A DNA stretch of 64,000 nt from an uncultured Porphyromonadaceae bacterium (GCA_947178165.1 CAMWXH010000001.1:44266-108265); one strand, 5' to 3'; shown: positions 1,796 to 57,173, counted from the first letter of the stretch. The notes: generated by a model from the letters alone, not told the origin. Numbers and translations: made by a program.

Positions 1796-1810
1796 ACTGC
1801 ATCTTTTTTG

Positions 1811-1818: not shown

Positions 1819-1873
1819 ACTGATTTATCTTTAAGATGCAATTCGCGGGAATGAATGAACGGGAACATCACAT

Positions 1874-3445: not shown

Positions 3446-3460
3446 ACCGCATCTTTTTTG

Positions 3461-3468
3461 CAAAGATA
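3461..3468 (-). promoter_or_regulatory. Bacteroidota -7 promoter box TAtcTTTG for paralog 2
   Basis: caaagata on the plus strand, 16 nt upstream of the ATG at 3445. Confidence 0.6.
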
Positions 3469-30949: not shown

Positions 30950-31319
30950 TTATTCCGGCAAACACCGCATAGTCTGTTAGGATGCGGATCTCATATTCTC
31001 CGGATAGTGAGAATAGAGTTTCGATAAATTCCATCTCATCACTAAAAATCCCCATACAGATTCCATTGGCAGTGTAGATTTCAAAAGAAATAATGTCGTT
31101 GTTATCCACACCTGGTATTTCGATACCATAAGTACTGATTATTGCTCTCAATGTCTTTTGTGGTAATCTGTTGTGTTTTGGGTGTGTGGAAATCTTATTT
31201 TCGGGAGATGAATCGACCTTGAAAATTGGGATAGTTTTATAAGTGTCTATAATTGCATATACACTTGATGTATATAAAAGTAGTGTTGTAGCTGCTAAAA
31301 TTCGAATTGGATATTTCAT
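30939..31319 (-). CDS. Small secreted protein, possibly DUF3244-like
   Basis: Signal peptide, 126 aa, and a C-terminal GEYEIRILTDYAVFAGIIEI beta-sandwich-like pattern. The family call is from memory only. Confidence 0.4.
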   Translation of the reverse strand: MKYPIRILAATTLLLYTSSVYAIIDTYKTIPIFKVDSSPENKISTHPKHNRLPQKTLRAIISTYGIEIPGVDNNDIISFEIYTANGICMGIFSDEMEFIETLFSLSGEYEIRILTDYAVFAGIIEI

Positions 31320-40087: not shown

Positions 40088-42901
40088 TCATCTCACCGAA
40101 GCCCTGAGCTCGGAAGGGCTCATTCCGAAAGCATCCCGGAAACAGCGGGCGAAATATTGCGGAGAGGAGAATCCCGTCGCAAATGCAATTTCAGCTACGG
40201 TGTCATCTGAGACAAGCAATCTTTTGCGGGCTTCGCGCAAGCGGAACCCGCGAATTATTTCAACCGGAGTGCTGCCCGTCAAGGCCTTTATCTTGCGCGT
40301 CAGTTGCGTGGCACCAATCCCAAGCCTTCCGGCCACGTCTCCCACCGTCAGATCCTCGTCGGAATAGTGGAGCCTTACCTGCGACAGAAAATCGCGGTAG
40401 AAGGAATTGTCGAGCTCCAGGCGCGTATTTGAAGGATCCGGGTCATCCCTTCGTAAAAGTTCTGCCGGATCGGAACCCTGTTCGAGGAAGAGGTCGAAGA
40501 TCCGTTTTCTGTTCTTGATAAGGGAATCGAGGCGCGCCTTGATCATAACCTCCGTAAACGGTTTGGCAAGGAAGGCATCTGCCCCCGAATCATAGCTGCG
40601 CACACGCTGCTCATCAAGACGGCAGGCAGTGAGAATCAGGATCGGTATATGCGAAGTGATCCGTTCCTCCTTGAGCCGGCGCGTAACTTCAAGCCCATCG
40701 ACATCTGGCATCATGATGTCGCAGACGATTGCATCAGGAATATATTTCAGTGCGAGCCTCATTCCCTCCTTGCCATCTGAGGCTGAAATCACGTTATAGG
40801 CATCTGAGACCATAAGGCGCACCAGAGTGCGAATATCATCGTTGTCATCAATCACGAGGAGGAGCGGTTTCTCCGTGGAGAGGCTTTCAGATTCTATATC
40901 TCCGTCGTCGGCAGGCATCACCACATCCTCATCCACTGTATCGATTATGTCAAGGTCAAACCTTGTTGGCTCGGGATTACAGGCACCCTTATCCGACATG
41001 TCGGCCTCAGTGTGAGTCACAGGAATTGTGACAGTGAAACAGGAGCCCACTCCCGGCTCGCTCTCCACAGAGATGCTACCGTCCATAAGCTCCACAAAGG
41101 CCTTCGAAAGAGACAGCCCAATGCCCGATCCCTTCGGCCGTGGGGTATCGACCTGATAGAAGCGTTCAAATATCTTAGGCAGTTCCTCCTTGCTCATCCC
41201 TGTTCCTGTGTCGGTCACCTTCAGGATGAAGTTGGAATCCTCAACGCCGGCTTCAACGCTTACCATGCCTTTGGCGCCGGTATATTTGAAAGCATTCGAC
41301 AATAGATTGAAAAACACACGCTCCATCTTTTCCACATCCAAGGCCATGAAGAAAGGTTTGGCGCAACCATCCGTGGCGGGGAGGATAACTTCGAAAGCGA
41401 TATTATGGCGCAGGGCATAATCCGTGAAATTTGACGACCATTCAGAAATGAGCGAAATGATGTCAACCTCCTGAAGCGACATTGTCGTGACTCCATTTTC
41501 ATATCTGCGGAAATCGAGAATCTGATCGATCATTCTGCGTAGAATCTTCACATTCTTCACCACCATCTTCATCAATGTCCTGTCCGAATCGGGGAGGTAT
41601 CTCTCTTTTGCAATTTTCTCAACCGGGTCGGCAATCAGGGCGAGAGGGGTGCGGAGGTCGTGAGAAACATTCGTATAGAACGCCAGTTTTGACCTCGTGG
41701 CCTCCTCAAGGCGCGCATACAGCTCCCTTTGTTTCTCCTCGCGGTCGAGAAGCTGTGAATTTTTTTCAGCCAGCTCCCTGCTGTATTTTGTCCTCTGCCG
41801 GCTAAAATAGAGAAGCGCCGCCACCACTGCAAGCAGCAGCAAGAAAGCGATAAGCGTGACATAAAGGATTGTCTTCTGAGTGGCGTGGCGCGAGCTGACA
41901 AGCGCATATCTTGAATTGAGATCCTCAATCTGGGTTGTTTTATGGCGCAACACCTCGTTAAGGTTAAGGTGCATCAATGCATTGTCGCGGTTTATGAAAC
42001 TCACCGCTTCCATCTTGTTGTCGCGATTGTAAGCGTTTCCACGCAAGATATCCATGGCCAGACGAATCACCTCCTCTCCCACGGTAGGATAAGTGAAGGT
42101 TATGTCGATGAGGGAGTCGGACACAGCTTTTATGCCCAATTCGGGAGCGCCGTCTGTTCCGATCACCACAACATCATTGCGGTTCCTCTCACGAGCCACT
42201 TTGGAGGCCGATATGGCCATAACGTCATTGTGGGCATAGATTATCTTTATCTCGGGATTTGAAGCCAGCAGAGAGTCTGTGACGCGGTAGGCAGGGGTTG
42301 CATTCCAGTCCGCCGCATAGCTTCCAGCAAATGAATCAGCCGCGCTGTCAGAAATCGCACTCATGAAACCTGCATGACGTTCCTCGGCCGGAGTGGAACC
42401 CGGAAGCCCTGTTAGCTCGACAATCTTCCCTCCGTTCTTATCAAGGGCGTGGAGGGCATACTTCCCGGCTTCCCGGCCGATGCTCACATTGTCAAGGTCT
42501 ATGCGCGCCGTGTAGGTAGTGTCGTTTATGTTGCGGTCGAATATGATCACCGGCACCCCCTTCCTGTAGGCATTGCGCACGGCAGGGGTCAGGGCTTCGG
42601 CTTCATTCGGGGCTATTATGATTATGTCAAATCCCTCGCGAACGAAATAGTCGATATCTTCAATCTGCTTGCGGCTGTCGTCGCTTGCAGTGCGTATCTC
42701 CACTGTGGCGTCGTCATAAAAGAGCATCTCTCGGTTTATCTCATCGTTCATCTGACGGCGCCATTCATCGTCGCTCGGTTGCGAAACACCGATGCGATAT
42801 TTCTCGTGATTCTCACGACACCCCTGCAGCGCAGGGATAGAGAATAATATTAAAAGGCAATATATGGCCTTGCAATATAGATTTTCCTGAATTTTATTCA
42901 T
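40088..42901 (-). CDS. Hybrid two-component system sensor/regulator with a periplasmic sugar-binding (PBP type I) domain (BT1754-like architecture)
   Basis: PBP-like region YRIGVSQPSDDEW...VPVIIFDR, a TM, H-box VSHDLRTPL, HATPase GSGIGLSL, a REC domain, and a C-terminal AraC HTH. I trimmed the start to the ATG at 42901 because a TAaaTTTG box at 42969-42976 abuts the longer ORF. Confidence 0.85.
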   Translation of the reverse strand: MNKIQENLYCKAIYCLLILFSIPALQGCRENHEKYRIGVSQPSDDEWRRQMNDEINREMLFYDDATVEIRTASDDSRKQIEDIDYFVREGFDIIIIAPNEAEALTPAVRNAYRKGVPVIIFDRNINDTTYTARIDLDNVSIGREAGKYALHALDKNGGKIVELTGLPGSTPAEERHAGFMSAISDSAADSFAGSYAADWNATPAYRVTDSLLASNPEIKIIYAHNDVMAISASKVARERNRNDVVVIGTDGAPELGIKAVSDSLIDITFTYPTVGEEVIRLAMDILRGNAYNRDNKMEAVSFINRDNALMHLNLNEVLRHKTTQIEDLNSRYALVSSRHATQKTILYVTLIAFLLLLAVVAALLYFSRQRTKYSRELAEKNSQLLDREEKQRELYARLEEATRSKLAFYTNVSHDLRTPLALIADPVEKIAKERYLPDSDRTLMKMVVKNVKILRRMIDQILDFRRYENGVTTMSLQEVDIISLISEWSSNFTDYALRHNIAFEVILPATDGCAKPFFMALDVEKMERVFFNLLSNAFKYTGAKGMVSVEAGVEDSNFILKVTDTGTGMSKEELPKIFERFYQVDTPRPKGSGIGLSLSKAFVELMDGSISVESEPGVGSCFTVTIPVTHTEADMSDKGACNPEPTRFDLDIIDTVDEDVVMPADDGDIESESLSTEKPLLLVIDDNDDIRTLVRLMVSDAYNVISASDGKEGMRLALKYIPDAIVCDIMMPDVDGLEVTRRLKEERITSHIPILILTACRLDEQRVRSYDSGADAFLAKPFTEVMIKARLDSLIKNRKRIFDLFLEQGSDPAELLRRDDPDPSNTRLELDNSFYRDFLSQVRLHYSDEDLTVGDVAGRLGIGATQLTRKIKALTGSTPVEIIRGFRLREARKRLLVSDDTVAEIAFATGFSSPQYFARCFRDAFGMSPSELRASVR

Positions 42902-43046
42902 AGTCGGATAAATGGAGAAGAGCGCGGGAGAAACTGACCCCCACACTCTTCGAAAGGAAAAATACACTCAAATTTAAAGATAAAAATTAACAATATCCGA
43001 AAAGAGTCTGAAGATGCAACAATATTAGAAAAGAAAGCGAGATTTT

Positions 43047-43457
43047 TTATATCGTGCCTTTGACCGTCAGCATCACCCTTGGATTGTCGGCATTGCTTCT
43101 TATTCGGAGAGTTTTTCTGAATGGCCCCGGCCTGCGGTTCTTGCTGTCAAAGCTGATCTTTATCTCTCCGCTCTCTCCGGGCCCCACGGCATCCGCGGTG
43201 TAGGAGGAGGTGGTGCATCCGCATTCGGAGAAGATTGCCAGTATCTGCAGGGGCGCTGTGCCGGTGTTTCGGAATCGCATGCTCCCTTCCACAATCGTAT
43301 CGGCATTGATCACGCCGAAATCGAAGTGGCAGGAATCGAGACTCAGGTGGCCGACAGCAACGTTAGTGTCGTCATCGCCAACCGTCGGCCCGGCCAGCGA
43401 GGCCGAGGCTGACGAAAGAGCGATAAAAACAATAATATAAACTAATAGATTTCTCAT
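43047..43457 (-). CDS. DUF1573 domain protein (small secreted Ig-like protein)
   Basis: Signal peptide and the DUF1573-like pattern FDFGVI...FRNTGTAPLQI...ECGCT...PGESGEIKISF. Its ATG overlaps the stop of the giant gene (ATGA). Confidence 0.7.
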   Translation of the reverse strand: MRNLLVYIIVFIALSSASASLAGPTVGDDDTNVAVGHLSLDSCHFDFGVINADTIVEGSMRFRNTGTAPLQILAIFSECGCTTSSYTADAVGPGESGEIKISFDSKNRRPGPFRKTLRIRSNADNPRVMLTVKGTI

Positions 43458-46400
43458 ATACTCAGTTTGACTGTTCTTTCTTCATTAGCATTTCTCATCT
43501 TCACAATTGACACACCCTCATCGAGCGAAAGAGAGAGGGAGTCGCTTCCGCCGGCGTTATGCGTGATGCGTCCTAACGTGTCGCAAACCGTAACACGAAG
43601 TTCCCCTGTGCAGGCGCAGTCAGTCACGTTAAGGATATTTCCGGCCAACGACCATTTGAGAGTTTCGGTGACTATGCTGTCGCTTTTCCCTGCGGTGAGG
43701 TAGAAACGCCCGCCGACAGCTCCTGTCACCTCAATCTCTGTCACCTCCTCAAGCGGTGTCATCGAATCGTCAGATGCATCGTAGAGATAAAGGTCTCCGA
43801 AAGCTTCGGTTCCTTCAAAGCGGAGAATGGAGGCTGTTCCCTCATCGGCTATCAAGCCAATCTCCACTCCCTCGGAATCCGTGCAGAAGTTTATGCTCCT
43901 TGCGTGTCCCCCCTTTGCCGTGAACACAGTGGAGAGAATGTCGAGATCCCGATTGTCAATTGCATCCACGCATTCTTCAGGAACATTGTCCGAGCCCGGA
44001 ACGAGAATTGCCGTTGAGCAAGCCCGCCCTTCGCTGATAGAAGTGATTCTGAGATAAGCCGGCTCGTCTCCGGAGCGTGTGCCCTGAGTGAGAATAGAGC
44101 CATCCTTGTGGTCCCGGCGCATCATAGTCTCATCATATTCCAAATCCAGAGATGTCGCGGCTTTCTTAGATTCCACAAAGAAACCCTGCATCGGTGCAAT
44201 AGCTGTGGCATCTTCTGGAGAATCGCTTTCAGGATAGGGGGAGGCAATGAAATTATTTTCCCCGGAGAGGCTGCCTGCAATTTGGCCATCCTTTGTTACG
44301 ACCCAATATTTCTGTTCCAGCTTGTCCTGGTTCCTGGAGAGAAATCCCTTAATATCCATATAAGTCATGAAAGGATTGCCCACAAGGAAATATTTCCCTT
44401 CATTGGCAGTGGTTACGGTCATTGTTCCATTGCTGACATTGAGGCGGTGACTGTTTTCTCTGTTCAGTGCGGCGGTTTCTTTATTATCCGTTGTGCCATC
44501 CTGTTTGTAATAGAAATAGGTTTCATCTCCTTTGGGCAGGCGGAAGATCACCTTATCTCCGGCATTATTGGCATTGGAGACATCTGTCTTGATAGAGAAA
44601 GCCTTCCCGTTGCCGTAATCCTCTGTGGCATCGTTATAGACGCGGCTCCAGAATGTCTTGACGGCAACATTGCGGGCATCGTTCGTTCCGAACTCATAAA
44701 CGTTCGCGGTGCTCTTGTCCCATCCTCGCTGATACACTGCCGGCGCGAAACGGTCATTCTTTGCCGTATCAAAGGTAATTTCGCGGAACATTTCAGTCTC
44801 CTGGCGAGCTTTTTCAGTTGGAAGATAGAAATCACCGGCGTAGGCATCCTGAAGCGGTGTCGAAAGGATATACCAACGGGAATGGTCAAGCTCTACATCC
44901 ACCCAGGCTTTCTCATAATTGAGCACCTGCTGATTCATGATGGTTGCACCAGGGAGGAAATGGATCTCCTTGCAGCGGTTGGCTTGCCAGGGACGGCAAA
45001 GGAGCCTCTCCTCATCCCACTGTGATTCGCGGGCTGTCATATCATATTGTATGAGCGATGTAGGCCCCCCGATTTTCTCGGCCGGTTTCTCTGCCCCGTC
45101 GGGGTTGGAAGTCCATTTGTTCTTAACAGCGGCATTGTATTCGTCGGTCATCTCCACATTGTCGGTTGCCGGAGCGTAGAGCCAGGGGTTCTCGCCGTCA
45201 GCCCCGATGAAATTTCCCTCCGCATCTCTTGTCACGTCCGGGCGGTCAATCACAACTCTTGTGAAATCGAGCGGCGCGAAACCTCTGCCGTTAGCATTCC
45301 CTCCATCAGTGAACCGGTAATCATCGGCTGATGCGTCAGGTTTCAAGATTTCGGAAGATGTCACGCGCATCCAGTTGTCATCGTTGTCCCACGATAGGTT
45401 CTTGTCGCCATTCCATTTAAGGTATTGCGGTACGACTTTAGTAGTGAATATGTCGTGACCGTTACAGATTGTTTCATCATCTGCATCGATCTCCTCATCG
45501 TTGTTTTCTTCAAATTGATAGCGGAAACGGTAGAAATAACCTTCCTTGAATTTGAAATTCCTGTCGAAATCGGCAGTGAAATGTTTCCTTTCACCTGATG
45601 TTGCCGCACCATTCCCTGAGGAATAGGCATTGAACTCTACAATCTCGCCTACCCAAAGAAGATGTTCTGTCTCCTCTTTTGAGTCATCCAGTGTTCCCAA
45701 ATTGCGGTATTCCGGGTCATTGGTTTGGGCAAGAAGAATGCATCCGGTTCTTTTCACCTTCTCGTTATTGATAATTGTTTCCTCGTTTACGAGAGAGAAC
45801 TCTTTAGGCTTGCCGTCGGAAGAGGATACCGCTCGCAAGGGGATATCGATTTTCCGCAATTCAGACGCAGCGGATGTCACTTCAGAATTTTTGTAAATCT
45901 GATTCAGGCCCAGGCGCAATGGCACGTCATAAAGCTCTGCGGGATAATTCAGGGCCGGGTCGGAAAGGCCGTGGAGAATAACCGGTGTATGATCACCGAC
46001 AGATATTCCGATTTCGGTAGGTGACTTGCAAACCTGCACGCTCTTCCCGCCGGCAGTTTCCCCCGGTGCATTCTCCCAAAGGAGGTCAATTATGGGTATG
46101 GCCACAAAACGGGCTTTTGTTGCGGCCTCGCCTTCATTGCGGCTAACAGGGGGAACAACGAATGAAGCCTGATGCAACACCAGCTTAGGCAGCCCGTTTG
46201 CGGCAGGGGAGGAAGCAACATCAATTATGTCGAGCATCCATTGCTCGAGCATCATATCATCGTCTCCCTTCTCAGTCTCGGCCTTGATTCCGGCCACGCT
46301 CTCCGCTTCAGGATAACGGGCGCGGAACAGATTCAAGGCAGTCTGGAGATAATGAGCATCGTCATCTTCAGTATAGTCATCAGCAACCTCCAGCGATTCG

Positions 46401-49400
46401 GGATAATCTTTGAAACGATAATTCTCAAAATCGTTGATTGAGCCATCAAACCAGTCGAAATAGGCATTCTTCATCACTTCTACCGGTTCCTTGTCAGTGC
46501 TCCAAACATTGAGCTGTATCACCGGCATCTGATTTTCACATGCTTCAAGCTCATTGAACTCGGGTTGGATCACGCCGTCAATCTTAACCTCCAAAGCCGG
46601 AGTCACAGTAAGGACGCAATTATAGGAGCACTCCTCGCCGAGGTCGAAGAATGTGGTCGCATCGTAGCTGTCGGGGAGAATCCCGACGGAATTGTCACCG
46701 TCGTCGAGACGTGACTTGAACACTACATAATATTCCTTGCCGATTTTGAGTTTGCCGGCATCAGCTACAGTCTCGAACACAATCATCCTGTCGCCAGATT
46801 CATTGGTCATGCGATAAGCCGTCTCTTTTGCTATATTGCCCAGACGGTTGCCTCCGTTGTCGGTATATGAATCGTTTTTAGTGAAATTATTGCTGAACTT
46901 CACCTTGCCTATAGTGGCATCGTTCATCGAGCCTGTCTCCTCAAATTTCTCCTTATCCACGAAAGCATAGTAGAGGTCAATTTTTTTATCGGCAGTGCCA
47001 TATCCTTCCGCCTGACCCAACTTTTCGAGCAATGTTTCGAAAGAGGCCTGGATAGTGAGGTCGAGAGGCACATCATCGCATGCAAAGCCATCGTGCGAAG
47101 CATCGGCGGCAGGGGGGAGGACGTAGGCCCGGATGTCATCAATGGCATAATCTGCACCCACAGAGCTTTCTCCGTTATGGGCAAGTTCGAGCTCGAAGTG
47201 ATCCACATCCTTGAAAGTCTTGGTGTCGTTAAAATACTCCGACATGCGAGGAATGAATGAGTAATATACGTTGCACCATTTTCCTAATTTGTCACCAGGG
47301 ATATTTCCTGTAATGAAATTGTGCAGCACCACTCTTTCATTTGTCTCATTCATCACGGCCACAAAATTGAAGGAGATGTTTGCGGCTTCATAATCGTCAT
47401 TGGCGTCTCCTTTAGTCATTTCAGCCACCCAGGCCGATACAATCACGCGACTTCCGGCACATGGGAGGTCCACATTGATGCGTGCCGACACCCCCGGGTC
47501 GGATGCTGCGTTCACATAGTAGAAATAACCCTGCTCCTGCCTTATCTTCTTGTCGGGATTAGCTTCTCTCATTCGCTTGGTCTTGTAGTAGAGGCGGTCG
47601 TATAGCCCGATGCCGTCACCCTCATTGTTAGCATTCCAATTATCTGCACTTGCATGATAGGGGACGTTGGTGGAATGAGTGGCGAGCATATACATGTTGT
47701 AGTTGTATCTGTAGTTGTAGCCGAAACCGTAGGTGGATCGTTCCCATGCGATAGGCCACTTGTAGAAGGCGTGCTGCATTTTAGAGGCGCTCGTGAGATG
47801 ATTTGTGGAATTATGATCCCAAACCACCAGATTCAGCTTATTTTCATCCTTATACCATTGGTCGGCGATGTCAAACGCAGGCACAGAATACGATATGAAC
47901 TTATTTTTCAGTGTTTCATCAGTGAGTTTATTGATTTCAAAATAGTTGTCGAAGTCAATCTTGAATTGAGTATCGCCATACTTCTCCTTGAGATATTCGT
48001 CGCGGGCGTGACGATACCTGTTATTATTCTTATTAGAGGGGTCTGTGTCGTAAAGCTCAGCGTCAGTCAGCAGCGATGCGCTGCTTGAGCCAACAAAACG
48101 GATGTCATATTGCATCAGGATCATCGGGCCGGTGGAAGTGGTTATTATGTTGCCGTTATTATCTTTAGCGAGCACCTGCACAATGTAGCGACCCTCGCCA
48201 GGATTATCTTTACGCAACATCGAATGGTAACGGAACTGATTTTCCGGCTCTGCATACTCCCCGGCTGCCGAGGGTTTGGAGCGGCGCATCCTTATGTCAG
48301 ATCCGAAAACGAAGCCCTGTTCTCCGGGCAATTCCTCGCGCGTGTCGCCGTTCAGCACGCGGATTCCGAATTGACGGATGCGGTCATATTTGCCTGTGGC
48401 ATTGTTCTTGAAATAATAGTTTGTCACGCCGCCCGACGTTCCCCAGCCCGTGGGAAGAGGGGAGTCGAGACGGATCTGGAAATTTGTTCCGGCCATCGCC
48501 GTCACGCGATGCTGGTTCTTTCTTGCATAGTCGCTGTTGGCATCCTGAAGTTCCTCTGTCTGCTGACGCGCATCGCGGATGCGGAAGATATGTCGGAAAG
48601 CAATCAAGGGTTCCATCACCTTTCTTTCATCCACTTTGATATGATTTTCATCGGGATAGAAGGTCTGGCTGAAATCAGCGGCTATCACATATTCGTGAGT
48701 CTCATCCCATTCTCCTTTCAGGTTTTCCGGGAAATAGAACACCGCAGAGGTCCCTGCCTTGCGTCGGCGTTGCTCCTCGCAGTCTTCCCCCTCTCCATGC
48801 CAGGGGCGATGGAACCCGGTTAATAAAAGTTCTCCTCCGAGATTCGGATTTTCGGTGTCGATCAATTCAAACCATCCTGCCATATCGGGAAGGGTGGCGA
48901 ATGGTTTCCAGATGGGATCCGTATAATCTCCTATCTGATTAAAATTGCCGTAGCAGTTTTTGAAGTTGAGGGTCCATGTCACATCAGAGTTATCAAATTT
49001 ACCCTGCTCAATCCATCCCCCTGTCGCATCCTCGTAAGGTTCGTTTCCCAGACTGTGGCGCACGTAGGTTTCTCTCTTCAAAGGTTCATGTCCGGTAAGC
49101 GAGCAATCCACAACTATGTTTTTGAAATAGGAGGGAGTTGCCGACATTCGGGTGTGCAGCCATCCGCAAAGGGCAGTGTTAAATCGCATGCCGAGATCGG
49201 GATTGCCGACAGTTCCACCCACATACACATTCTCCACTGTGAGATGATTGTCGCTGCTCTCATTGTCGCATCTTCCGAGTATGGCACCCACAAAATGCTC
49301 CCCCTCGCTCCCTGTTCCTTTTATAGTGCAATTGCTGTTGATTTTTATGTTCTTGGCGGTCAGACCCCCACCAGTGAGGTATGCCACCAATCCTACATGT

Positions 49401-50335
49401 GTCCAGCCGCTCAGTGTGCAATTGTCAAGAACAAGATTATAAATAGCCACTCCGTTTCCGCCGTTTCTGATTAATCCAACTTTATGTTGGTTGCGCGACA
49501 TATCCAGGTTCTTGATGGCATAGCCCCTTCCGTCAATAATGCCGGTAAAGGGGGTATTGTCATCATTTCCTAACATTGGAACATCATTGATGCCGGAAAA
49601 ATCCAGATCGCAGGTCAGTTCAATGTGTCCCTTTCCTCCGTCGGCATTGATAGCGTTAACGGCATCAACATATTCATTGGTGGATGAGACGATATATTTC
49701 GGTGCGGGTTGAGGCACATCTTTAGTTCCGGGACTCATATAGATTCCGCCATAAAACCCGTAGTCGGAAATCTGAATATATCCGCGATCGTAGGGGAAGT
49801 CGAGGAGGTCGTAGGCTTTCCCGTTTGAATTGGATTCATGGATCACGCGGCCCCCCGTGTTGTAATCATACCAGTGAGAGAATGTCTCGAGATAATCACG
49901 CGTGGAAAGGAAATTATCTCCCGTGGGCTCTTTATATTCCTCCAGACCGTAATATGGGTAGAGCGACACGGCATCGCCGGGCAGTGCATATATGATATGC
50001 TCCACCACGTGGGTCTGCTGACGTTTCTGACCCGGATTGAGTTTCCCTCCCTCGATGAACTCAAAATCAGGGAAGCTGATACCCATGTCGCGAAGTGTCT
50101 GTATTTCATTAGCCGTAGGAAATTCCCAGTTGTCAGGATCCTGCCTATCTTTATCAATCCAGGGGATTCGATTCGGGTTCAGATCCTTCATGCCTCGCGT
50201 ATTCACGAACTCATAGTCCTTGAGATTCTTCAGATATTCATCGGGCAGATTATCCGGTTCCTCCCCGGCAGCTCTTGCTGAGAAGAGGCTTAAAGCGGAG
50301 GTGAAGAGGATGCCATATAGGATTTCGGTTTTCAT
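43454..50335 (-). CDS. Giant (2,293 aa) secreted surface protein in the Mfa5 position of a pilus operon, with a GLUG/beta-helix-like N-terminal region and a T9SS-like C-terminal tail
   Basis: Sec signal peptide, then FTGIIDGRGYAIKNLDM...KVGLI...HVGLVAY...FVGAILG, a GLUG-type repeat pattern. The C-terminal roughly 70 aa (VCDTLGRITH...GVSIVKM...RTVKLSI) resemble a T9SS CTD. The ORF is one uninterrupted 6.9 kb. Confidence 0.8.
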   Translation of the reverse strand: MKTEILYGILFTSALSLFSARAAGEEPDNLPDEYLKNLKDYEFVNTRGMKDLNPNRIPWIDKDRQDPDNWEFPTANEIQTLRDMGISFPDFEFIEGGKLNPGQKRQQTHVVEHIIYALPGDAVSLYPYYGLEEYKEPTGDNFLSTRDYLETFSHWYDYNTGGRVIHESNSNGKAYDLLDFPYDRGYIQISDYGFYGGIYMSPGTKDVPQPAPKYIVSSTNEYVDAVNAINADGGKGHIELTCDLDFSGINDVPMLGNDDNTPFTGIIDGRGYAIKNLDMSRNQHKVGLIRNGGNGVAIYNLVLDNCTLSGWTHVGLVAYLTGGGLTAKNIKINSNCTIKGTGSEGEHFVGAILGRCDNESSDNHLTVENVYVGGTVGNPDLGMRFNTALCGWLHTRMSATPSYFKNIVVDCSLTGHEPLKRETYVRHSLGNEPYEDATGGWIEQGKFDNSDVTWTLNFKNCYGNFNQIGDYTDPIWKPFATLPDMAGWFELIDTENPNLGGELLLTGFHRPWHGEGEDCEEQRRRKAGTSAVFYFPENLKGEWDETHEYVIAADFSQTFYPDENHIKVDERKVMEPLIAFRHIFRIRDARQQTEELQDANSDYARKNQHRVTAMAGTNFQIRLDSPLPTGWGTSGGVTNYYFKNNATGKYDRIRQFGIRVLNGDTREELPGEQGFVFGSDIRMRRSKPSAAGEYAEPENQFRYHSMLRKDNPGEGRYIVQVLAKDNNGNIITTSTGPMILMQYDIRFVGSSSASLLTDAELYDTDPSNKNNNRYRHARDEYLKEKYGDTQFKIDFDNYFEINKLTDETLKNKFISYSVPAFDIADQWYKDENKLNLVVWDHNSTNHLTSASKMQHAFYKWPIAWERSTYGFGYNYRYNYNMYMLATHSTNVPYHASADNWNANNEGDGIGLYDRLYYKTKRMREANPDKKIRQEQGYFYYVNAASDPGVSARINVDLPCAGSRVIVSAWVAEMTKGDANDDYEAANISFNFVAVMNETNERVVLHNFITGNIPGDKLGKWCNVYYSFIPRMSEYFNDTKTFKDVDHFELELAHNGESSVGADYAIDDIRAYVLPPAADASHDGFACDDVPLDLTIQASFETLLEKLGQAEGYGTADKKIDLYYAFVDKEKFEETGSMNDATIGKVKFSNNFTKNDSYTDNGGNRLGNIAKETAYRMTNESGDRMIVFETVADAGKLKIGKEYYVVFKSRLDDGDNSVGILPDSYDATTFFDLGEECSYNCVLTVTPALEVKIDGVIQPEFNELEACENQMPVIQLNVWSTDKEPVEVMKNAYFDWFDGSINDFENYRFKDYPESLEVADDYTEDDDAHYLQTALNLFRARYPEAESVAGIKAETEKGDDDMMLEQWMLDIIDVASSPAANGLPKLVLHQASFVVPPVSRNEGEAATKARFVAIPIIDLLWENAPGETAGGKSVQVCKSPTEIGISVGDHTPVILHGLSDPALNYPAELYDVPLRLGLNQIYKNSEVTSAASELRKIDIPLRAVSSSDGKPKEFSLVNEETIINNEKVKRTGCILLAQTNDPEYRNLGTLDDSKEETEHLLWVGEIVEFNAYSSGNGAATSGERKHFTADFDRNFKFKEGYFYRFRYQFEENNDEEIDADDETICNGHDIFTTKVVPQYLKWNGDKNLSWDNDDNWMRVTSSEILKPDASADDYRFTDGGNANGRGFAPLDFTRVVIDRPDVTRDAEGNFIGADGENPWLYAPATDNVEMTDEYNAAVKNKWTSNPDGAEKPAEKIGGPTSLIQYDMTARESQWDEERLLCRPWQANRCKEIHFLPGATIMNQQVLNYEKAWVDVELDHSRWYILSTPLQDAYAGDFYLPTEKARQETEMFREITFDTAKNDRFAPAVYQRGWDKSTANVYEFGTNDARNVAVKTFWSRVYNDATEDYGNGKAFSIKTDVSNANNAGDKVIFRLPKGDETYFYYKQDGTTDNKETAALNRENSHRLNVSNGTMTVTTANEGKYFLVGNPFMTYMDIKGFLSRNQDKLEQKYWVVTKDGQIAGSLSGENNFIASPYPESDSPEDATAIAPMQGFFVESKKAATSLDLEYDETMMRRDHKDGSILTQGTRSGDEPAYLRITSISEGRACSTAILVPGSDNVPEECVDAIDNRDLDILSTVFTAKGGHARSINFCTDSEGVEIGLIADEGTASILRFEGTEAFGDLYLYDASDDSMTPLEEVTEIEVTGAVGGRFYLTAGKSDSIVTETLKWSLAGNILNVTDCACTGELRVTVCDTLGRITHNAGGSDSLSLSLDEGVSIVKMRNANEERTVKLSI

Positions 50336-50351: not shown

Positions 50352-51785
50352 TTAGTTTCTGATGATATAAATTTTTCGGGTGTAACTGTCGGTGTTCATT
50401 GCGCCGGTTTCGTAGTGAGGGCGGTCATAAACCTTCACCGTGAATTCCAAAGAAGCTTTTCCCTCCTTTTCATTCAGTGTGCCAGTCACTTCGTTGGGCA
50501 GAGAGGCCGAAGTGGAGGTGAGAGTGGGCTGTTTTGAGAAAATGTCAGTCCCGGTCACATTGGATATTGCAATAGTGTAATATATGGGTGCGAGATGCAT
50601 TCCTGTCTGTTTGTCGGTAACAGTAGCGGCGATCTCGAAATCGCCCGGCGTGCCGAAAGTGAATATCTGGGCGCCCTCCGGATCTGTTGAGGAGGTCATT
50701 GCCGGGTAACCGCCGATAGGGGGATAGAAAAGAGCTTCCACATTCACATCGTAGCGTGAGATCCTGACGGGAATGACTATCCAGTCGTTTCGGTTGATAT
50801 AGGAGAGTATATCGCGCGTGATATTATGTTGTTCATAATCGCTCACCTCATTTTGGCCGTTTACTTCATTTTTGTGTGCATGGCTCACTTTCAATCCGAT
50901 TGTGAAAGCGCCGTCATTGGCACGATCGGAAAGCGATTCCTGCATAAAAAAGCTTTTGTTCAGTTTCTTGCCTGCACCTACAGTGTTGCCAGATGAGAGA
51001 GTGAAGGTTTGGTTTGCGTAAGTCGCATTTGTAAGGGGAGAGAAAGCAGAAAGTCCCAGGTGGGAGTAGGCTATGCCTGATTCTCCTCGTGGAAAAAGGG
51101 AGACTCCATTGGAGGTGACAGGATCAATGCTTACGCTTTGCACCGTCACATCTTCATCCCCTGCATTTTCAAATTGAAATTCCATTTTGGCCACCATTCT
51201 GACAACTTCAATTGTGAAAGACTCCTCAATGCTGTTCTTAACCTTGACACCTTTCAGGAAGCCAGACATCGGTATAGGCTGGGTGGCATCCCAATTGTTT
51301 AGGGAGTTTTTCCATTGGGCCGCTTCCACGCTATTGACAGATACCTTGGCACCCTTTTTGAATTCAATGCCGGTTTCAGATTTCAAAGTCGCTTCATTGA
51401 TATTGGCGAAGGCATATATGTTGTAGGTTCCCGAAGGGATGATGCATTTGAAACTTTCCAATTCCACAGCCGCGGTTAGTTCCGAACTGCGGTTCACCAC
51501 CCCTGCCACCGTTCCGTTTTTATCCACGAAAGCGATCCACCAGGAATTTATCTTCTCATTATTGCCGGCAGGGTCGGCGGTGTGGCCGTCGCCTGTGCTT
51601 TCGCCGGCCGTCATCGGGTCGCTGCGGAGGGTTTCGATAGAGATTCCGATCTCTGTGGGAATGCCATCCGTGAAGTTGGAATCATCCGTGAGAGGATTCT
51701 CATTAGAACAACCGCAGAACACCAGGGTGCCTGCGGATAATAGACAGGTCGTCAAGACCGGTGATATATAATTTTTGAAAATCAT
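50352..51785 (-). CDS. Fimbrial accessory lipoprotein (Mfa3/Mfa4-position)
   Basis: Lipobox LVFCGC. 477 aa. The call rests on operon position between the pilin genes and the giant gene; no strong motif was recognised. Confidence 0.5.
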   Translation of the reverse strand: MIFKNYISPVLTTCLLSAGTLVFCGCSNENPLTDDSNFTDGIPTEIGISIETLRSDPMTAGESTGDGHTADPAGNNEKINSWWIAFVDKNGTVAGVVNRSSELTAAVELESFKCIIPSGTYNIYAFANINEATLKSETGIEFKKGAKVSVNSVEAAQWKNSLNNWDATQPIPMSGFLKGVKVKNSIEESFTIEVVRMVAKMEFQFENAGDEDVTVQSVSIDPVTSNGVSLFPRGESGIAYSHLGLSAFSPLTNATYANQTFTLSSGNTVGAGKKLNKSFFMQESLSDRANDGAFTIGLKVSHAHKNEVNGQNEVSDYEQHNITRDILSYINRNDWIVIPVRISRYDVNVEALFYPPIGGYPAMTSSTDPEGAQIFTFGTPGDFEIAATVTDKQTGMHLAPIYYTIAISNVTGTDIFSKQPTLTSTSASLPNEVTGTLNEKEGKASLEFTVKVYDRPHYETGAMNTDSYTRKIYIIRN

Positions 51786-51819: not shown

Positions 51820-53565
51820 TTAAAATGTGAGAGGATTTTTCTCTTCGCGCTTATTCCATTTCCTCACGAATATGCGGCTTGTCATCGTGTCGGGTTCACG
51901 CATTGTCGGAGTGGGGTGGCCCGGGCCTGAGAAACTTATCGCTACACGATATATGTTGTTTCTCACTATTGCATATTCCATGGGATAGTCTTGCTGCGGG
52001 TCGGCATTGTCAAGGTTGAAATGGCGGAGCCAGAGATTGTAATAGCATGCGCCGCCATCAAATTTGGTGATGCTGGCATTATCCTGCGGATGAGCGGAAG
52101 AATATTGCGAAGCCTCCGACTCCGACGCGAAATAGAGGGCTTCGGAATCCCTGTTGGAGTCATTTTCACCTGTCGAAGGGATATATCGCCAGAAAGTCTT
52201 GTCGGCCATGGCTTTCCAGTCGGCATCAGATTTTGTGGACTTTGTCAGTTCCTTTGTGGCATTATTCCAGTTGCTCCAGACTGTGGGCTGATACACGCCG
52301 CGCAGAGCTATGCCGGTGATGAATTTAGAGTTGTAGCAATCCGGGCTCTGGATATTCTCATTGGCGTATGAAATGATGGTCATGCGGTCGCAATTGTCGA
52401 AATCCGTTTCCGGAGCCGGGAGCGCAGTGGAGAAATAACCGGCGAAAACACCCTTTGCCGCATTGCTTATGTCATTATTAACCGTTGCAACAGCTGTGGA
52501 GCCATACCATTCAGCCGGCACTGAAGTTGTTCCCGGCTTCGAGAGGGTGCGGGGTTCAATCACATAATTTGAGGGGATTAAAGTGGTGGCATCTACCTGC
52601 TCTGCGCCTCCCCAGGTTATTTTTCCCAACCCCGATTCATTCCAGCTTGCGGGAATTGCGCCGGTCACTTTGGTGAGGAGGTAGGAAGTTTTCTGCATCA
52701 CGTTCACCGGAAGGATATTGGTGATATGCACCTTGTTGCCTGATGAGGGAACGTTATAAAGCAACTCATCTTTGGCGAAGTTTTCCGCTTTATACATCAA
52801 GTCTATACGTGCGCACATACGCTGCACGGTGGTTTCTCCTATCCATTTCTTGCCGGCCCATGGATTTCCGGGGAGGGCATCAGGCTTAGTGTTAATCACG
52901 AGACGGTTGCTTCCTACAGAGCGTGCAACCCCGTCAATGAGTATTTTCCCATTGCTGTTGGCATCGTAGGCGGTGGTCATAATGAATTTCTCGCAATTTG
53001 ATGCATCTGCGTTTCCGGCTGAAACCCAGGCAGCGCTGAGATTGAAATAACTGCGTAGGTCGTCAAGATTATTTATCCCTGCTGAGATGTCTCTGCCGGC
53101 ATTCAGCACCGTTATGAAACTCACATCCGTTGCGCTAAGAATCCCCTGATTCCCTAAATCCGTATCGGCTGTCTTGATTTTTATGGTCAGTTTCTTCTCA
53201 AAAGGAAGACCCTCTTCCAATGTTGCGAGCCGGTCAAGATTGCTTACATACACATTCGTCACTTCAGGGTTTTCCACGGGATTAAGACCTGATCCTTTGA
53301 AGAAAAAAACGTTGGCGTCAAACACCCTGTTCTCATTCTGCAATCCCTTTTCGCGGCCATTTCCATCCTCGCCGCCTATGGGGTTGGCTCGGGTGATTGT
53401 TTCGGAATCAGCCATAGGCACGCGGAGCACTATGGTTATCTCTCCCTCCCGGGTGGCATCGTTCTCCTCCGGAACAGGAAGCGAGTCAGAACATGCCCCC
53501 ATTGCCATCATCATCGAGGGTAGGATAAGGAGACGGAATGTATGTAAGAGGTTAGTTGTTTTCAT
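51820..53565 (-). CDS. Mfa1-family pilin-like lipoprotein (second pilin)
   Basis: Lipobox AMGAC and the C-terminal motif AIVRNNIYRVAISF, similar to P. gingivalis Mfa1 VVRNNIYHIHIKSI. Confidence 0.65.
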   Translation of the reverse strand: MKTTNLLHTFRLLILPSMMMAMGACSDSLPVPEENDATREGEITIVLRVPMADSETITRANPIGGEDGNGREKGLQNENRVFDANVFFFKGSGLNPVENPEVTNVYVSNLDRLATLEEGLPFEKKLTIKIKTADTDLGNQGILSATDVSFITVLNAGRDISAGINNLDDLRSYFNLSAAWVSAGNADASNCEKFIMTTAYDANSNGKILIDGVARSVGSNRLVINTKPDALPGNPWAGKKWIGETTVQRMCARIDLMYKAENFAKDELLYNVPSSGNKVHITNILPVNVMQKTSYLLTKVTGAIPASWNESGLGKITWGGAEQVDATTLIPSNYVIEPRTLSKPGTTSVPAEWYGSTAVATVNNDISNAAKGVFAGYFSTALPAPETDFDNCDRMTIISYANENIQSPDCYNSKFITGIALRGVYQPTVWSNWNNATKELTKSTKSDADWKAMADKTFWRYIPSTGENDSNRDSEALYFASESEASQYSSAHPQDNASITKFDGGACYYNLWLRHFNLDNADPQQDYPMEYAIVRNNIYRVAISFSGPGHPTPTMREPDTMTSRIFVRKWNKREEKNPLTF

Positions 53566-53570
53566 GAAGG

Positions 53571-54734
53571 TTAAATATTAATGTTCTGAATTCTTTTGCT
53601 CCATGAAAGGACATGGAGTTCAACCATTATCCAGTCGTCGTCTTTCAGGTATATATCGAGATTATAATCATGCTCCCGGTCGAGATATTCTTGCAATCCG
53701 TAGTTCTTCAATGGATATGCCTGTCGTCCTTGCGAGAGGATTGCGGGGAGGTTGATACGGCTCACCATCTTCCCGTTCTGCCGGTTATAAATCTCCAGCA
53801 TCGCGTTGTCTTGGCTATCATCGGGATTTATGATCAGACGGTTGAACATTATGTCATATTCAGCTTTAGGATCCACGCTATTGTCGGTTTCAGCCCTGGA
53901 AGGGCGGAAGGTGTATGGGATGTATCGCAAAGAATCATGGGTGAGCACACTGTTGTCGTGTGAAAAATGCGCATTGTTGTCGATTATCATCACATCGTAG
54001 GCATCCGACAAGACATATTCGGGAGTGCCGACATGACGCAATGTGAGGTTAAGGTGTTTGGTGTTTCTTATGAGTGAGATTGTTGCGTAGGTGGCATGTT
54101 CATCTTTCACTTCTGCCATCTGTTCTTCAAGCGGATAGATGGAATAGGGTGCGGAGGTTGGTTCCGGTGCGGGGACAATCACGCCGTCGCGTGGTGTTCC
54201 GGGATTCACCTTAAGAGTATGCCAGAGGGTATCGAGTGGTGCTGAGGCATCCACGGCGAATTGGTTGGTGCCGGGTATGGGTTCGCTATCATGGTCGAGA
54301 GATATCATCATATTCTCGGAATTGTCAGTGGGGGAGGCTGTATGGCGATATTTGGCACCTCCGAAAGAGAGGGCTTCATCCCAGTCGCGCTGCATGCCTA
54401 CGGCCTGAAGTCGGTAGCGATGGCCGGCGGGTAGTTCAGACTGGCTGAAATGTATGTTGTAGCCATACTGCTTGAGAGGGGAGTCGTCCGGGGTGTTGCT
54501 TACGCTTCGTTGCGCCGCGAGATTACCCTTTTCATCGAACACATAGAGCTGGATATGCCCGACGTGATCCTGAAATAGATCCTGACCGGCAGTATTGTAA
54601 TCATATACAAAGCGTACATAAAGCCCTTCCGGACATCCTTCACGGTCTTCGTAAATCAACGAGCATGAACCGAGGGTGATTGCCGTCAGAGAGCAGATAA
54701 GAGAGGTTGCAATATTTGAGAGAGTAAGTCTCAT
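53571..54734 (-). CDS. FimB/Mfa2-family fimbrial anchor/terminator-like lipoprotein
   Basis: Lipobox TLGSC. 387 aa. The C-terminus MVELHVLSWSKRIQNINI parallels the pilin C-terminal strand motif, and the gene sits second in the operon as mfa2 does. Confidence 0.6.
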   Translation of the reverse strand: MRLTLSNIATSLICSLTAITLGSCSLIYEDREGCPEGLYVRFVYDYNTAGQDLFQDHVGHIQLYVFDEKGNLAAQRSVSNTPDDSPLKQYGYNIHFSQSELPAGHRYRLQAVGMQRDWDEALSFGGAKYRHTASPTDNSENMMISLDHDSEPIPGTNQFAVDASAPLDTLWHTLKVNPGTPRDGVIVPAPEPTSAPYSIYPLEEQMAEVKDEHATYATISLIRNTKHLNLTLRHVGTPEYVLSDAYDVMIIDNNAHFSHDNSVLTHDSLRYIPYTFRPSRAETDNSVDPKAEYDIMFNRLIINPDDSQDNAMLEIYNRQNGKMVSRINLPAILSQGRQAYPLKNYGLQEYLDREHDYNLDIYLKDDDWIMVELHVLSWSKRIQNINI

Positions 54735-54820: not shown

Positions 54821-56851
54821 TTAGAAATCAATACCCTGCAAACGTTTAGCCCACGACATGATGTGGATTTCGACAGCGAGGAATTTGGTATCCTCTATGT
54901 TGTCGTCAGAAAGTTCTACATTCACATCAGGGATTGTGGTGCTTCCAAGTCCGGAGATGGTGTTGATTGCGAGTTCATACCAGTTGTTGCGAACCACGCC
55001 GTGACGTCCGAGATAATTTTTATAGGTTGTTTCAGATCTCGGGTTGGGATATACTTCCCCTGTGGTGGTTCCCTTGATATCCCTCTCTTTCCAGGGGGTG
55101 TAAAATTCTCCGAAGTGCTCGATTGGAATTGCATAGTAGGAGACACAATCGGAGTAGCGTCTCACGTCGCTGAGGGCATTTATATTGCCGATAAGATTAT
55201 AGAGTTGTGATGCCGTGTTATCGGCTGTTCCGAGTTCCGCTTCAAATTTGTTTTGGTCAAATGTGGCAGTATCCTTTATTTTGATGTTGCTGATAAGCAC
55301 CTCGTCATCATCAAGTTGCCATTCAATATCAAGACTGTTCTTCATATTGATTGTAGCCGGTTTCGGCACCCCGTTCTTCACGCTGTTTTCGAGAGCCTGC
55401 TTGATGAGTTCACTGTTATATACACGAGCGATTGCGTCGGCACATGCCTCATCTCTCTTCAAGTATATTTTTTGTTTGTTTCCATCCTTGATATATAGAT
55501 GAGTCACCTTGTTGTTATCGGCATCTGTGATGTTGTAGGTCACTTTGAACACCGCCATGGTGGAGTTCTTGTAATTCATGTTGGGCACGGTCAATGTGTT
55601 CTCCTTACAATAGAAAGTCTTGCTTGCTAAAGCGAAGAAAGCATTGTCGAAAGGAGCAGAGTCGTCATAGTCGAAACCTGTTGCTCCGGGATTTAGGATA
55701 TACTTATCCGGATTCAATGCGGAATTTACCACACCGTTCATTTCAGTGTAATAATTTGGATCCACACACCAGTAAGTTCTCACGAGGTTCTGATCCTGGT
55801 CGTGGAAAGGGGAGTTGAGTTTGTTTATGGGTTTGGTGCCGACCATACGGACCTCTTTCTCATTTCCATCCTTATCGGTGGCCTTGTAATCCCATCCGAA
55901 GAAACCGTTGGTTGCGGAATTAGGTTTAAATTCCACGTTGCGTATCAGATAGCTTGACTTGTTGGTGTTAGTGAGCGCATATTCCACCTGGGCGGTTACT
56001 TTAACGGCACTCTTTCCATTGTCGTCAACTATCTCTTCGCCATCTCCATTAACGAAAGTGAGTTTAAGGTTTTTATTGTCGAAGGGCTGACTTGTGACTT
56101 TTGCCACACCGCGTTCCACGTAAACACATCCTGCCACGTTCTGCTTTGCCTCGTCGGCTGTAGGCTTTACGTTATTTGACAGCTTGGTCATGTACTGGAC
56201 AGTTTTCGTTGTTGGGTTGTAAAGCGGTGCATTGGTCATGAAAATGTGAGTCTCTTCACCAGTCTTATCTTTTGCAAAGAAGGCTTTGTCGGTTGTTAGA
56301 TTAAGGAAATCGCTGAACTTCCCGACATTGTCTTCCTGATCGAATGTTTTGTCGCCAATCGTGATCTCGGTTGCCATTGCATTGGATGTTGAGGGCACCT
56401 TGACAAAATCTTTGTTCCTGTTGAGCATCACCAATGCATAGAATACATCAGTTGATTCCTCACCCGGATCAACTTCCACCGGAATTGCGGCAAAATAGGA
56501 AGCAGAGATCTGGGAGCCATGGAGGTTTGAGAAGAAAGGCTTCGTGAGTTCCTTGGCTTTATAGAAAGTTGCGTCCTCCTCTTTTCCTCCTGTGGTTCCT
56601 TTGAAAAGAAGGATGAGGGCGTTGTCATCTTCCACTCGGTATTCGTTTGGAGTGCCATCGTCAAACTGGTCATTCTCTGCACGTGTTCCTCCTTCCTGTG
56701 GAAGTTCAATCTGTACGCCGAGATATCCCACTGCCGGTACGCCTTGTCCGGCTTCGGCTTGCTGATTCTCTTGGGGAATCAGATCATTGTCTGAGCATGC
56801 GCCAAGCATTGTTAGCGCCATTGCTCCATAGAGCCATTTGTAAAGCTTCAT
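54821..56851 (-). CDS. Mfa1-family major fimbrial subunit-like lipoprotein
   Basis: I trimmed the start to MKLYKWLYGAMALTMLGAC (lipobox). VVRNNWYELAINTISGLG and the C-terminal AVEIHIMSWAKRLQGIDF parallel Mfa1 VVRNNIYHIHIKSIKKLG and VEVTVLPWKVHSYEVDL. Confidence 0.7.
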   Translation of the reverse strand: MKLYKWLYGAMALTMLGACSDNDLIPQENQQAEAGQGVPAVGYLGVQIELPQEGGTRAENDQFDDGTPNEYRVEDDNALILLFKGTTGGKEEDATFYKAKELTKPFFSNLHGSQISASYFAAIPVEVDPGEESTDVFYALVMLNRNKDFVKVPSTSNAMATEITIGDKTFDQEDNVGKFSDFLNLTTDKAFFAKDKTGEETHIFMTNAPLYNPTTKTVQYMTKLSNNVKPTADEAKQNVAGCVYVERGVAKVTSQPFDNKNLKLTFVNGDGEEIVDDNGKSAVKVTAQVEYALTNTNKSSYLIRNVEFKPNSATNGFFGWDYKATDKDGNEKEVRMVGTKPINKLNSPFHDQDQNLVRTYWCVDPNYYTEMNGVVNSALNPDKYILNPGATGFDYDDSAPFDNAFFALASKTFYCKENTLTVPNMNYKNSTMAVFKVTYNITDADNNKVTHLYIKDGNKQKIYLKRDEACADAIARVYNSELIKQALENSVKNGVPKPATINMKNSLDIEWQLDDDEVLISNIKIKDTATFDQNKFEAELGTADNTASQLYNLIGNINALSDVRRYSDCVSYYAIPIEHFGEFYTPWKERDIKGTTTGEVYPNPRSETTYKNYLGRHGVVRNNWYELAINTISGLGSTTIPDVNVELSDDNIEDTKFLAVEIHIMSWAKRLQGIDF

Positions 56852-56984: not shown

Positions 56985-57173
56985 GTGTCGGAAAAATGAA
57001 AGCAGTATAATATCGGGGGGATGTATTATAAAAAATTGAGCAGTGTAGCAAAACTCCACGACAATGTTTGAAAATTATACAAATCGGGAATTTCAGTCTT
57101 AAAAAGCCATTGATTATGTGAAAAATAGGGGAATTGTAGAGAAAAACGACATAGTTGTTCAGTTTTCCGACAC
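56985..57173. repeat. 16-bp inverted repeats (15/16 match) bracketing a 157-bp segment between divergent promoters
   Basis: gtgtcggaaaaatgaa (56985-57000) compared with the reverse complement of ttcagttttccgacac (57158-57173). Confidence 0.8.

Follow-up and report, generated by a model that had tools for sequence, protein, structure and literature searches.

A giant protein with a predicted type IX sorting domain is encoded behind four pilin genes in a Porphyromonadaceae bacterium and belongs to a large unnamed family

What is the role of a protein of 2,293 amino acids (aa) that is encoded directly behind four type V pilin genes? The question is raised by a 64,000 nucleotide stretch of DNA from an uncultured Porphyromonadaceae bacterium (GCA_947178165.1, CAMWXH010000001.1:44266-108265), which we call the window and to which all coordinates refer. 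The gene for this protein, here termed the giant, is located on the minus strand at 43454..50335; it starts with ATG and the open reading frame (ORF) is real. Bacteroidota, the dominant gut phylum, have type V pili as their principal adhesive organelles. A tip protein that is secreted through a type IX secretion system (T9SS) and joins a type V pilus whose remaining subunits take another export route has, to our knowledge, been studied only in Porphyromonas gingivalis (Mfa5). We consider it probable, with some reserve, that the giant is a T9SS-exported adhesin and the distal (tip) component of an Mfa-type pilus, a functional analogue of Mfa5 that is built from different domains. A first-pass annotation of the window had proposed a novel adhesin or enzyme delivered via the T9SS. 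The lectin- and adhesin-type modules described below speak for the adhesin, and the enzyme was not supported since no catalytic domain was found.

The genes upstream of the giant, all on the minus strand, are those of a type V pilus operon. The first encodes the stalk pilin, a member of the Mfa1 family with a Fimbrillin_C domain (54821..56851, likely ATG start at 56851), which has the lipoprotein signal MKLYKWLYGAMALTMLGAC/S. It is followed by the genes for an Mfa2-type anchor pilin of 387 aa (53571..54734; PF08842, E = 5.4e-38), a 581-aa Mfa1-family pilin with Fimbrillin_C (51820..53565) and a 477-aa pilin-family lipoprotein (50352..51785; lipobox LVFCGC/S; fim_Mfa1_fam, E = 1.6e-10). The latter is similar to the alignments of the stalk pilin, the Mfa2 anchor and the third pilin with hhalign probabilities of 96-97. 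The order in the window is thus stalk, Mfa2, pilin, pilin, giant, with a gap of 86 nt between the stalk and mfa2 genes and gaps of 5-34 nt thereafter.

This arrangement is conserved. Hidden Markov models (HMMs) made from the window neighbours were searched against all ORFs of 80 loci from GTDB genomes. A pilin gene is located immediately upstream in 51 of the 59 giants with at least 1.5 kb of upstream sequence, and four of the eight misses are frameshift-split giant genes with the pilins farther upstream. Mfa2 and the fourth pilin are encoded within 8 kb upstream in 33 of the 40 loci with at least 6 kb of upstream sequence, often preceded by DUF3575 and DUF3868 genes. The complete order of stalk, Mfa2, two pilins and giant recurs in Muribaculaceae, Prevotella/Prevotellaceae and Parabacteroides loci. 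The place of the giant as tip or accessory gene of such an operon, which had been read from the window, is borne out by these counts, and so is the co-occurrence with mfa-like operons across Bacteroidales.

Both ends of the giant point to secretion. The n/h/c layout of its N-terminus, MKTEILYGILFTSALSLFSARA/AGEE, is that of a signal peptide for signal peptidase I (aa 1-22; 50270..50335, minus strand), which agrees with the Sec signal peptide noticed at first pass. By inspection, which is also the basis of the signal peptide assignment, the giant has no lipobox cysteine, while a lipobox is present in all four upstream pilins. The last approximately 70 residues (aa 2223-2293; 43457..43669, minus strand) are, as judged from profile and model comparisons, a type A T9SS sorting domain (C-terminal domain, CTD). 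The family profile matches RgpB CTD chains (E = 6e-4 to 7e-3) and 8glk_D, the CTD of a T9SS substrate (E = 5e-4), and with a model of aa 1100-2293 Foldseek retrieves the nuclear magnetic resonance structure of the RgpB CTD, 7pq4, as well as 3sd2 (DUF3244), with a probability of 1.0. The Por_Secre_tail model is significant in five of 15 homologues, and also in Parabacteroides and other relatives; G2255, G2274 and K2290 are invariant in the family alignment. The T9SS-like tail that the first reading had seen is therefore confirmed as homologous to the RgpB CTD by the family profile and Foldseek. The last approximately 70 residues of the giant align with the CTD of the gingipain RgpB (5ag8, 5hfs, 7pq4) including the conserved glycine and lysine residues, and a beta-sandwich precedes the CTD. 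The passenger part of RgpB, however, is unrelated to that of the giant, which has no protease domain. A match between the CTD of the giant and the Mfa2 anchor alignment (hhalign, 38 columns, probability 93.7) is probably generic beta-sandwich similarity or noise.

Between its two ends the giant has little in common with curated domain families. Searches of Pfam and NCBIfam with the whole protein returned no family at E ≤ 1. With ten tiles at E ≤ 10, Pectate_lyase_5 was found in a predicted beta-helix (E = 0.2) and Por_Secre_tail in the last 60 residues (E = 0.12), both of which are sub-threshold. A search of PDB sequences with the single sequence gave nothing meaningful, and no PDB sequence search, whether made with the single sequence, with the family profile or with a profile of the domain D5 (see below), gave matches of note other than those to the beta-helix and the CTD. 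Matches to gp41 around aa 1250 (E > 0.03) were dismissed as coiled-coil or helical noise. Neither Pfam and NCBIfam (tiles to E ≤ 10) nor the PDB sequence, profile and fold searches detected a von Willebrand factor A (vWA) domain, and the Mfa5 chain was absent among the PDB sequence, profile and fold matches. Likewise, no catalytic family or solved enzyme was found in Pfam, NCBIfam and the PDB sequence, profile and fold searches. The assignable parts are limited to the beta-helix, one jelly-roll-type domain and the CTD. The term domain-orphan, which had been applied to most of the protein, thus fits with regard to curated domain libraries and does not fit with regard to homologues, which are numerous. 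Known families that cover the whole protein or a clear vWA domain, either of which would have contradicted the first-pass annotation, did not appear; since no vWA domain was found, the giant is not an ordinary Mfa5.

Remaining details of that annotation could be specified. The enrichment in W, Y, D and N is moderate (D 8.4, N 7.1, Y 5.0 and W 1.6 % of the whole protein). A self-BLAST of the 2,293-aa protein returns the identity match alone, which confirms that internal repeats are missing, and none of 11 domains resembles another domain of the giant in hhalign comparisons; matches between D1 and D2 and between D3 and D4 are due to overlapping domain envelopes and are not duplications. Of the cysteine pairs that had been mentioned, close pairs or groups are present at positions 1236/1240, 1780/1788 and 2240/2242/2251. 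The protein contains 25 cysteines, eight of which are near-invariant in an alignment of 31 sequences (six in 31/31; C1780 and C1788 in 30/31).

The giant is a member of a large, conserved and unnamed family and not a one-off. With a profile of aa 1100-2095 (A5; 962 positions, CTD excluded), an exhaustive HMMER search of cluster representatives (50 % identity) found 2,579 at E ≤ 1e-3, of which 798 reach E ≤ 1e-30. All of the best 150 matches have E < 1e-176 and nearly all span most of the 962 positions; the proteins are 700-3,800 aa long. A word-indexed search had returned 30 relatives, which is badly misleading with respect to family size. The apparently tiny family of 30 is a limitation of that method, as shown by the exhaustive search. 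In a scan of one genome per GTDB species, relatives were confirmed in at least 189 species genomes. Carriers include Muribaculaceae (Sangeribacter, Duncaniella, Muribaculum), Prevotella, Paraprevotella, Xylanibacter rarus, Parabacteroides gordonii (with two copies), P. massiliensis and metagenome-assembled genomes of Bacteroides. In RefSeq the relatives are named T9SS type A sorting domain-containing protein, discoidin domain-containing protein or hypothetical protein. There is no curated model for the family core, and literature searches on Mfa5-like giants, DUF3868/DUF3575 operons and T9SS in connection with type V pili of gut bacteria did not find the family described. Tandem or close pairs of giants with no pilus genes between them are present in L009 (460-21106; 3,118 and 3,701 aa), L047 (1-13411), L061 and L063.

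Comparison of the family members suggests that a constant body carries exchangeable heads. Domain HMMs were run against 70 near-complete members, and AlphaFold2 models were generated for aa 24-1110 (pLDDT 81.7, pTM 0.71) and aa 1100-2293 (pLDDT 78.0, pTM 0.75), pLDDT being the predicted local distance difference test and pTM the predicted template modelling score. Both half-models are almost wholly beta, and the high pTM for models of approximately 1,100-1,200 residues suggests a defined overall architecture and not beads on a string. All domains described in the following are encoded on the minus strand. D1 (aa 24-213; 49697..50266) begins directly after the signal peptide in the giant and is a beta-rich domain with mixed pLDDT and no assigned fold; it has no Pfam match and is present in 59 of the 70 members. 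An HxxEH inverzincin motif in D1 (HVVEH, aa 109-113) was discarded, as H109 is not conserved and the stretch is predicted to be a beta-strand.

D2 (aa 214-470; 48926..49696) is predicted to be a right-handed beta-helix of the GLUG/Peptidase_M26_N kind, modelled with regular short strands and a pLDDT of approximately 90. The family profile (alignment A1) matches PDB entry 3n6z with E = 6e-5 over aa ~214-400, and the same entry is the best PDB fold match of the aa 24-1110 model (1.6e-6). 3n6z is the beta-helix protein BACOVA_03286, which is annotated as putative IgA1 protease. In addition, the family profile recovers dozens of large surface proteins with precomputed PF07581 (GLUG) and PF05342 (Peptidase_M26_N) annotations, and in BLASTP aa 235-377 align to one such protein (P0038) across its M26_N and GLUG stretches (E = 5e-11). 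The models PF07581 and PF05342 themselves gave no match at E ≤ 10 in the tile spanning aa 213-470. The GLUG-like region that had been recognised at first pass is therefore correct as a homology by profile, fold and pairwise comparison, with the Pfam GLUG model itself remaining silent. D2 shares with 3n6z and with the GLUG/M26_N modules of IgA1-protease- and haemagglutinin-type proteins the start F-x-G-x-x-D-G-x-G-x-x-I-x-N-L and repeated VG/GG turns. The likeness, however, spans only approximately 11 % of the giant, and the domain is dispensable in the family: it was found in 40 of the 70 members, compared to 70/70 for D5, D8 and D9. From this distribution D2 appears to be an accessory head module. 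Many members carry an additional F5/8 type C discoidin (galactose-binding-like) domain ahead of D1, for instance P0017, P0018, P0020 and P0364 (Xylanibacter rarus) at aa ~40-170; the giant is devoid of it. Thus, the pattern seen in the sequences is that of a conserved body with interchangeable lectin- or adhesin-type heads.

D3-D4 (aa 471-934; 47534..48925) are a mixture of helices and beta-sandwich, were detected in 50 to 54 of the 70 members and have no Pfam or PDB match. D5 (aa 935-1085; 47081..47533; 70/70) is a putative jelly-roll similar to MAM, CBM and Eph ligand-binding domains. It ends in the invariant motif GADYAIDDIRxY and is flanked by the invariant cysteines C959 and C1086. With the N-terminal half Foldseek finds MAM, CBM22, EclA and Eph ligand-binding domains with probabilities of approximately 1 over 140-180 columns; the jelly-roll was placed at aa ~935-1085 on the basis of its eight-strand pattern. 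The profile of D5 alone did not match any PDB sequence. D6-D8 (aa 1086-1645; 45401..47080) form an all-beta body with one helical insert, were found in 58 (D6), 65 (D7) and all 70 (D8) members and contain the invariant cysteines C1236, C1266, C1436 and C1624. D9 (aa 1646-2094; 44054..45400; 70/70) is the most conserved core and forms part of the profile that recovers the 2,579 representatives, with the motifs WxNDxNWxR, YQRGW, FRLPKxD, GNPF and PMQGFFV (alignment A6), and without a match in Pfam, NCBIfam and PDB. D10 (aa 2095-2222; 43670..44053; 69/70) is, according to its strand pattern, a beta-sandwich directly in front of the CTD. Altogether, the all-beta body D5-D10 of approximately 1,300 residues is constant in the family and has no convincing PDB match. 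Foldseek matches of the C-terminal half to alpha-2-macroglobulin, ROS1, GhpA and flavivirus E (probability ≤ 0.33, template modelling score ≤ 0.1) were not accepted as folds. A pilin-like domain was also considered and rejected: hhalign comparisons of the 11 domain alignments with the stalk, Mfa2, third and fourth pilus gene products gave no pilin match, and no type V pilin was among the fold matches of both half-models.

With the C-half model, the top match in BFVD is a record from an uncultured marine phage, a putative hemin binding protein of 587 aa (E 1.4e-15, probability 1.0). This record is probably a T9SS protein of Bacteroidota whose contig was mis-assigned, and it is uninformative with respect to function. 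It suggests that shorter D9-CTD relatives exist in marine Bacteroidota, in agreement with the approximately 815-aa Por_Secre_tail proteins P0342-P0352.

The gene directly downstream of the giant is a further conserved neighbour. It encodes a secreted DUF1573/HYDIN-type Ig-like protein of 136 aa (43047..43457, minus strand; PF07610, E = 3e-26; OS_HP2 (seleno)protein, E = 6e-16) and its start overlaps the stop codon of the giant by 4 nt (ATGA). A DUF1573 gene is located directly downstream of the giant in 41 of 68 loci. The gene is present in L001, L002, L006, L007 and many of L010-L073; it follows the giants of Muribaculaceae, also in loci without pilus genes, and is not found after the Prevotella- and Parabacteroides-type giants. 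A CxC motif (C79, C81) is conserved in 58/58 DUF1573 sequences. Viewed alongside the eight near-invariant cysteines in the giant, the motif suggests that the small protein may be a dedicated redox or chaperone partner.

The nearest known system is the Mfa1 fimbria of P. gingivalis, in which Mfa1-4 are lipoproteins and Mfa5 is T9SS-dependent and not lipidated (PMC7835359). Like the giant, Mfa5 (PGN_0291) is encoded in fifth position, behind the genes for the stalk, the Mfa2 anchor and two accessory pilins, and is far larger than the pilins. Both proteins have a Sec signal without lipidation, lipoprotein co-subunits and a C-terminal T9SS domain, and an adhesive role is presumed for both (for Mfa5: PMC7835359). 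The domains, however, differ. Mfa5 has 1,228 aa with a vWF-A domain containing a MIDAS motif (an adhesion site that depends on a metal ion) and IgG-like domains with an isopeptide bond, while the giant is approximately twice as long and without vWA. The solved half of Mfa5 matches the giant neither in sequence nor in fold; beta-sandwich domains are present in the giant. Unlike Mfa5, the giant has the beta-helix, the jelly-roll and the approximately 1,300-aa unassigned body, and in Muribaculaceae its gene is coupled to the DUF1573 gene. Thus, the giant resembles Mfa5 in position and predicted secretion, lacks the vWA domain and is not classified as Mfa5. It is not a type V pilin of the FimA/Mfa1 superfamily either, having no lipobox and no match to the two-domain pilin fold. 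The giant T9SS adhesins and filaments of Bacteroidota, such as the grappling-hook protein GhpA (9flp/9fly), are likewise very large, all-beta and T9SS-dependent. They appear, however, only among the low-probability multi-domain matches of Foldseek (probability ≤ 0.21, TM-score < 0.1), which is too little to indicate an equivalent fold, and these proteins are not encoded in pilus operons.

Based on these comparisons the giant might act in the following way. The precursor would pass the inner membrane via Sec, as its signal peptide indicates. The T9SS would then recognise the CTD, for which homology is documented above, and would carry the protein across the outer membrane. On the surface the giant might associate with the lipoprotein pilins encoded upstream, as gene order and the analogy to Mfa5 suggest; the pilins themselves would take the separate route of lipoproteins and would polymerise through strand exchange. 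The constant D5-D10 body could serve as scaffold and docking part, and the lineage-variable N-terminal modules (GLUG beta-helix, F5/8 type C discoidin) could bind ligands together with the universal jelly-roll D5. Glycans would be the probable ligands, carried by host mucus, by food particles or by other bacteria. In Muribaculaceae, the translationally coupled CxC DUF1573 protein would probably act on or with the giant in the periplasm or at the surface, a role that is speculative. T9SS export, pilus association and glycan binding of the giant are what we infer from sequence and analogy. That the protein is an adhesin and not an enzyme is suggested by three observations: the assignable modules apart from the CTD are a GLUG/M26_N beta-helix and a jelly-roll, with discoidin domains in relatives; the heads vary on a constant body; and no catalytic family was detected in Pfam and NCBIfam.

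Several points weigh against a T9SS-exported pilus tip adhesin. The family is known from sequence alone, so that the support is computational for every member. The CTD of the giant itself stays below the Pfam threshold (Por_Secre_tail, 0.12), and T9SS genes were not found within the 64-kb window. On the supporting side, gldL, gldM, gldN and porP are located approximately 4 kb from the homologue in locus L007. The position of the jelly-roll was inferred, as Foldseek reports no query coordinates, and the ligand class is a guess from predicted fold types. The hhalign comparisons gave no type V pilin-like domain and no donor strand could be identified. Furthermore, the giants in L002/L003 and L007 have no pilus genes nearby, and those in L009, L047 and L061 are encoded in tandem with a second giant. 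Pilus association is thus not obligatory in the family.

The last points also fit a free-standing T9SS surface adhesin, which would be anchored in the outer membrane after removal of the CTD (for instance by anionic lipopolysaccharide, as in other type A cargo) and would be co-transcribed with the pilus without being part of it. Such a protein would have the same CTD and signal peptide, it would explain the homologues without nearby pilus genes or in tandem copies, and it would need neither a pilin-like domain nor a donor strand, both of which were not detected; the high pTM likewise suggests a self-contained rigid body. On the other hand, the place after the fourth pilin is kept across three Bacteroidales families (51/59), which is hard to credit to co-regulation alone, and Mfa5, the one studied case of the same layout, sits at the tip in purified fimbriae (PMC7835359). 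We therefore regard a free-standing adhesin as rather unlikely, while keeping it in mind as the alternative with the most evidence behind it.

Two further roles have less in their favour. The giant could be an enzyme that is secreted or displayed on the surface, for instance a protease or a polysaccharide lyase or hydrolase, with a catalytic domain too divergent to be detected, and the pilus would only bring the cell to the substrate. Beta-helices are common in polysaccharide lyases, there is the weak Pectate_lyase_5 hint (E = 0.2), approximately 1,700 aa of the giant remain unassigned, and the operon is located between a GH32 gene and a gene for a sugar-sensing hybrid regulator in the window and in L001. 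However, the beta-helix belongs to the GLUG/M26_N adhesin type, which is non-catalytic, and 30 of 70 members lack it; Pfam describes Pectate_lyase_5 as a putative adhesive domain, the Pfam, NCBIfam, PDB profile and Foldseek searches gave no match to catalytic families or solved enzymes, and other loci do not share the carbohydrate genes on either side, all of which makes an enzyme improbable. Still less probable is a factor for pilus assembly or export, such as a platform at the surface on which pilins mature or polymerise. The close genetic linkage with the pilins would fit, as would the fact that the passage of type V pilins over the outer membrane has been described as unknown (PMC7835359). 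A size of 2,000-3,800 aa and lineage-variable lectin-type heads, however, look ligand-binding and not machine-like, and homologues exist without pilus genes. Moreover, in Bacteroides species without a T9SS, pilus assembly by most type V operons is not known to involve a protein of this kind.

A different, much larger and widespread protein family holds the Mfa5 slot in abundant gut commensals, including cultured and tractable species. In Muribaculaceae, Prevotella and Parabacteroides it offers a defined candidate whose part in adhesion to the host, to glycans or between bacteria can be tested, and a second, independent system for asking how T9SS cargo docks onto type V pili. Its approximately 1,300 conserved residues without a curated domain model are a target for structure work and for new Pfam and NCBIfam families. 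More tentatively, D5-D10 might be a new architecture that couples a T9SS adhesin to lipoprotein-route pili without donor-strand exchange, with the DUF1573 protein as a periplasmic thiol-redox or chaperone partner of the eight cysteines. We see this as a possibility and not as the expected outcome. Were it true, gut Muribaculaceae, Prevotella and Parabacteroides would share a general and so far undescribed crosstalk of the T9SS with type V pili, which would not be a peculiarity of P. gingivalis Mfa5.

The surroundings of the pilus operon show additional features. A 16-nt inverted repeat (15/16 bases; 56985-57000 and 57158-57173) surrounds 157 bp upstream of the operon, with a Bacteroides-type -7 motif (TAttTTTG) at the operon side of the proximal arm. 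It may be an invertible or regulatory element; its sequence is not conserved in the syntenic locus L001. The operon is bracketed by two genes, at 40088-42967 (minus strand) and 57303-61418 (plus strand), which code for a hybrid two-component regulator that carries a periplasmic sugar-binding domain and for a protein of 1,371 aa with GH32 and DUF4960 (levan-binding) domains. This places the operon in a fructan-utilisation-like region. The same kind of bracketing is found in L001 and L010 and is missing in more distant loci.

Elsewhere in the window, two tandem AAA-ATPase_like plus PDDEXK_9 genes and two genes of the PD-(D/E)XK transposase family are present (227-3463, minus strand; 12538-13482, minus strand; 33507-34523, plus strand). 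Of two short overlapping ORFs at 30407-31319 (minus strand), one codes for 180 aa and matches ABC_tran in part, and the other codes for 126 aa; they look like a split or truncated gene for an ABC (ATP-binding cassette) ATPase. The stretch between 26 and 34 kb has a low GC content (0.35-0.41 compared to approximately 0.48 elsewhere), contains ORFs for tetratricopeptide repeat (TPR) and outer-membrane beta-barrel proteins and ABC fragments, and may be acquired DNA.

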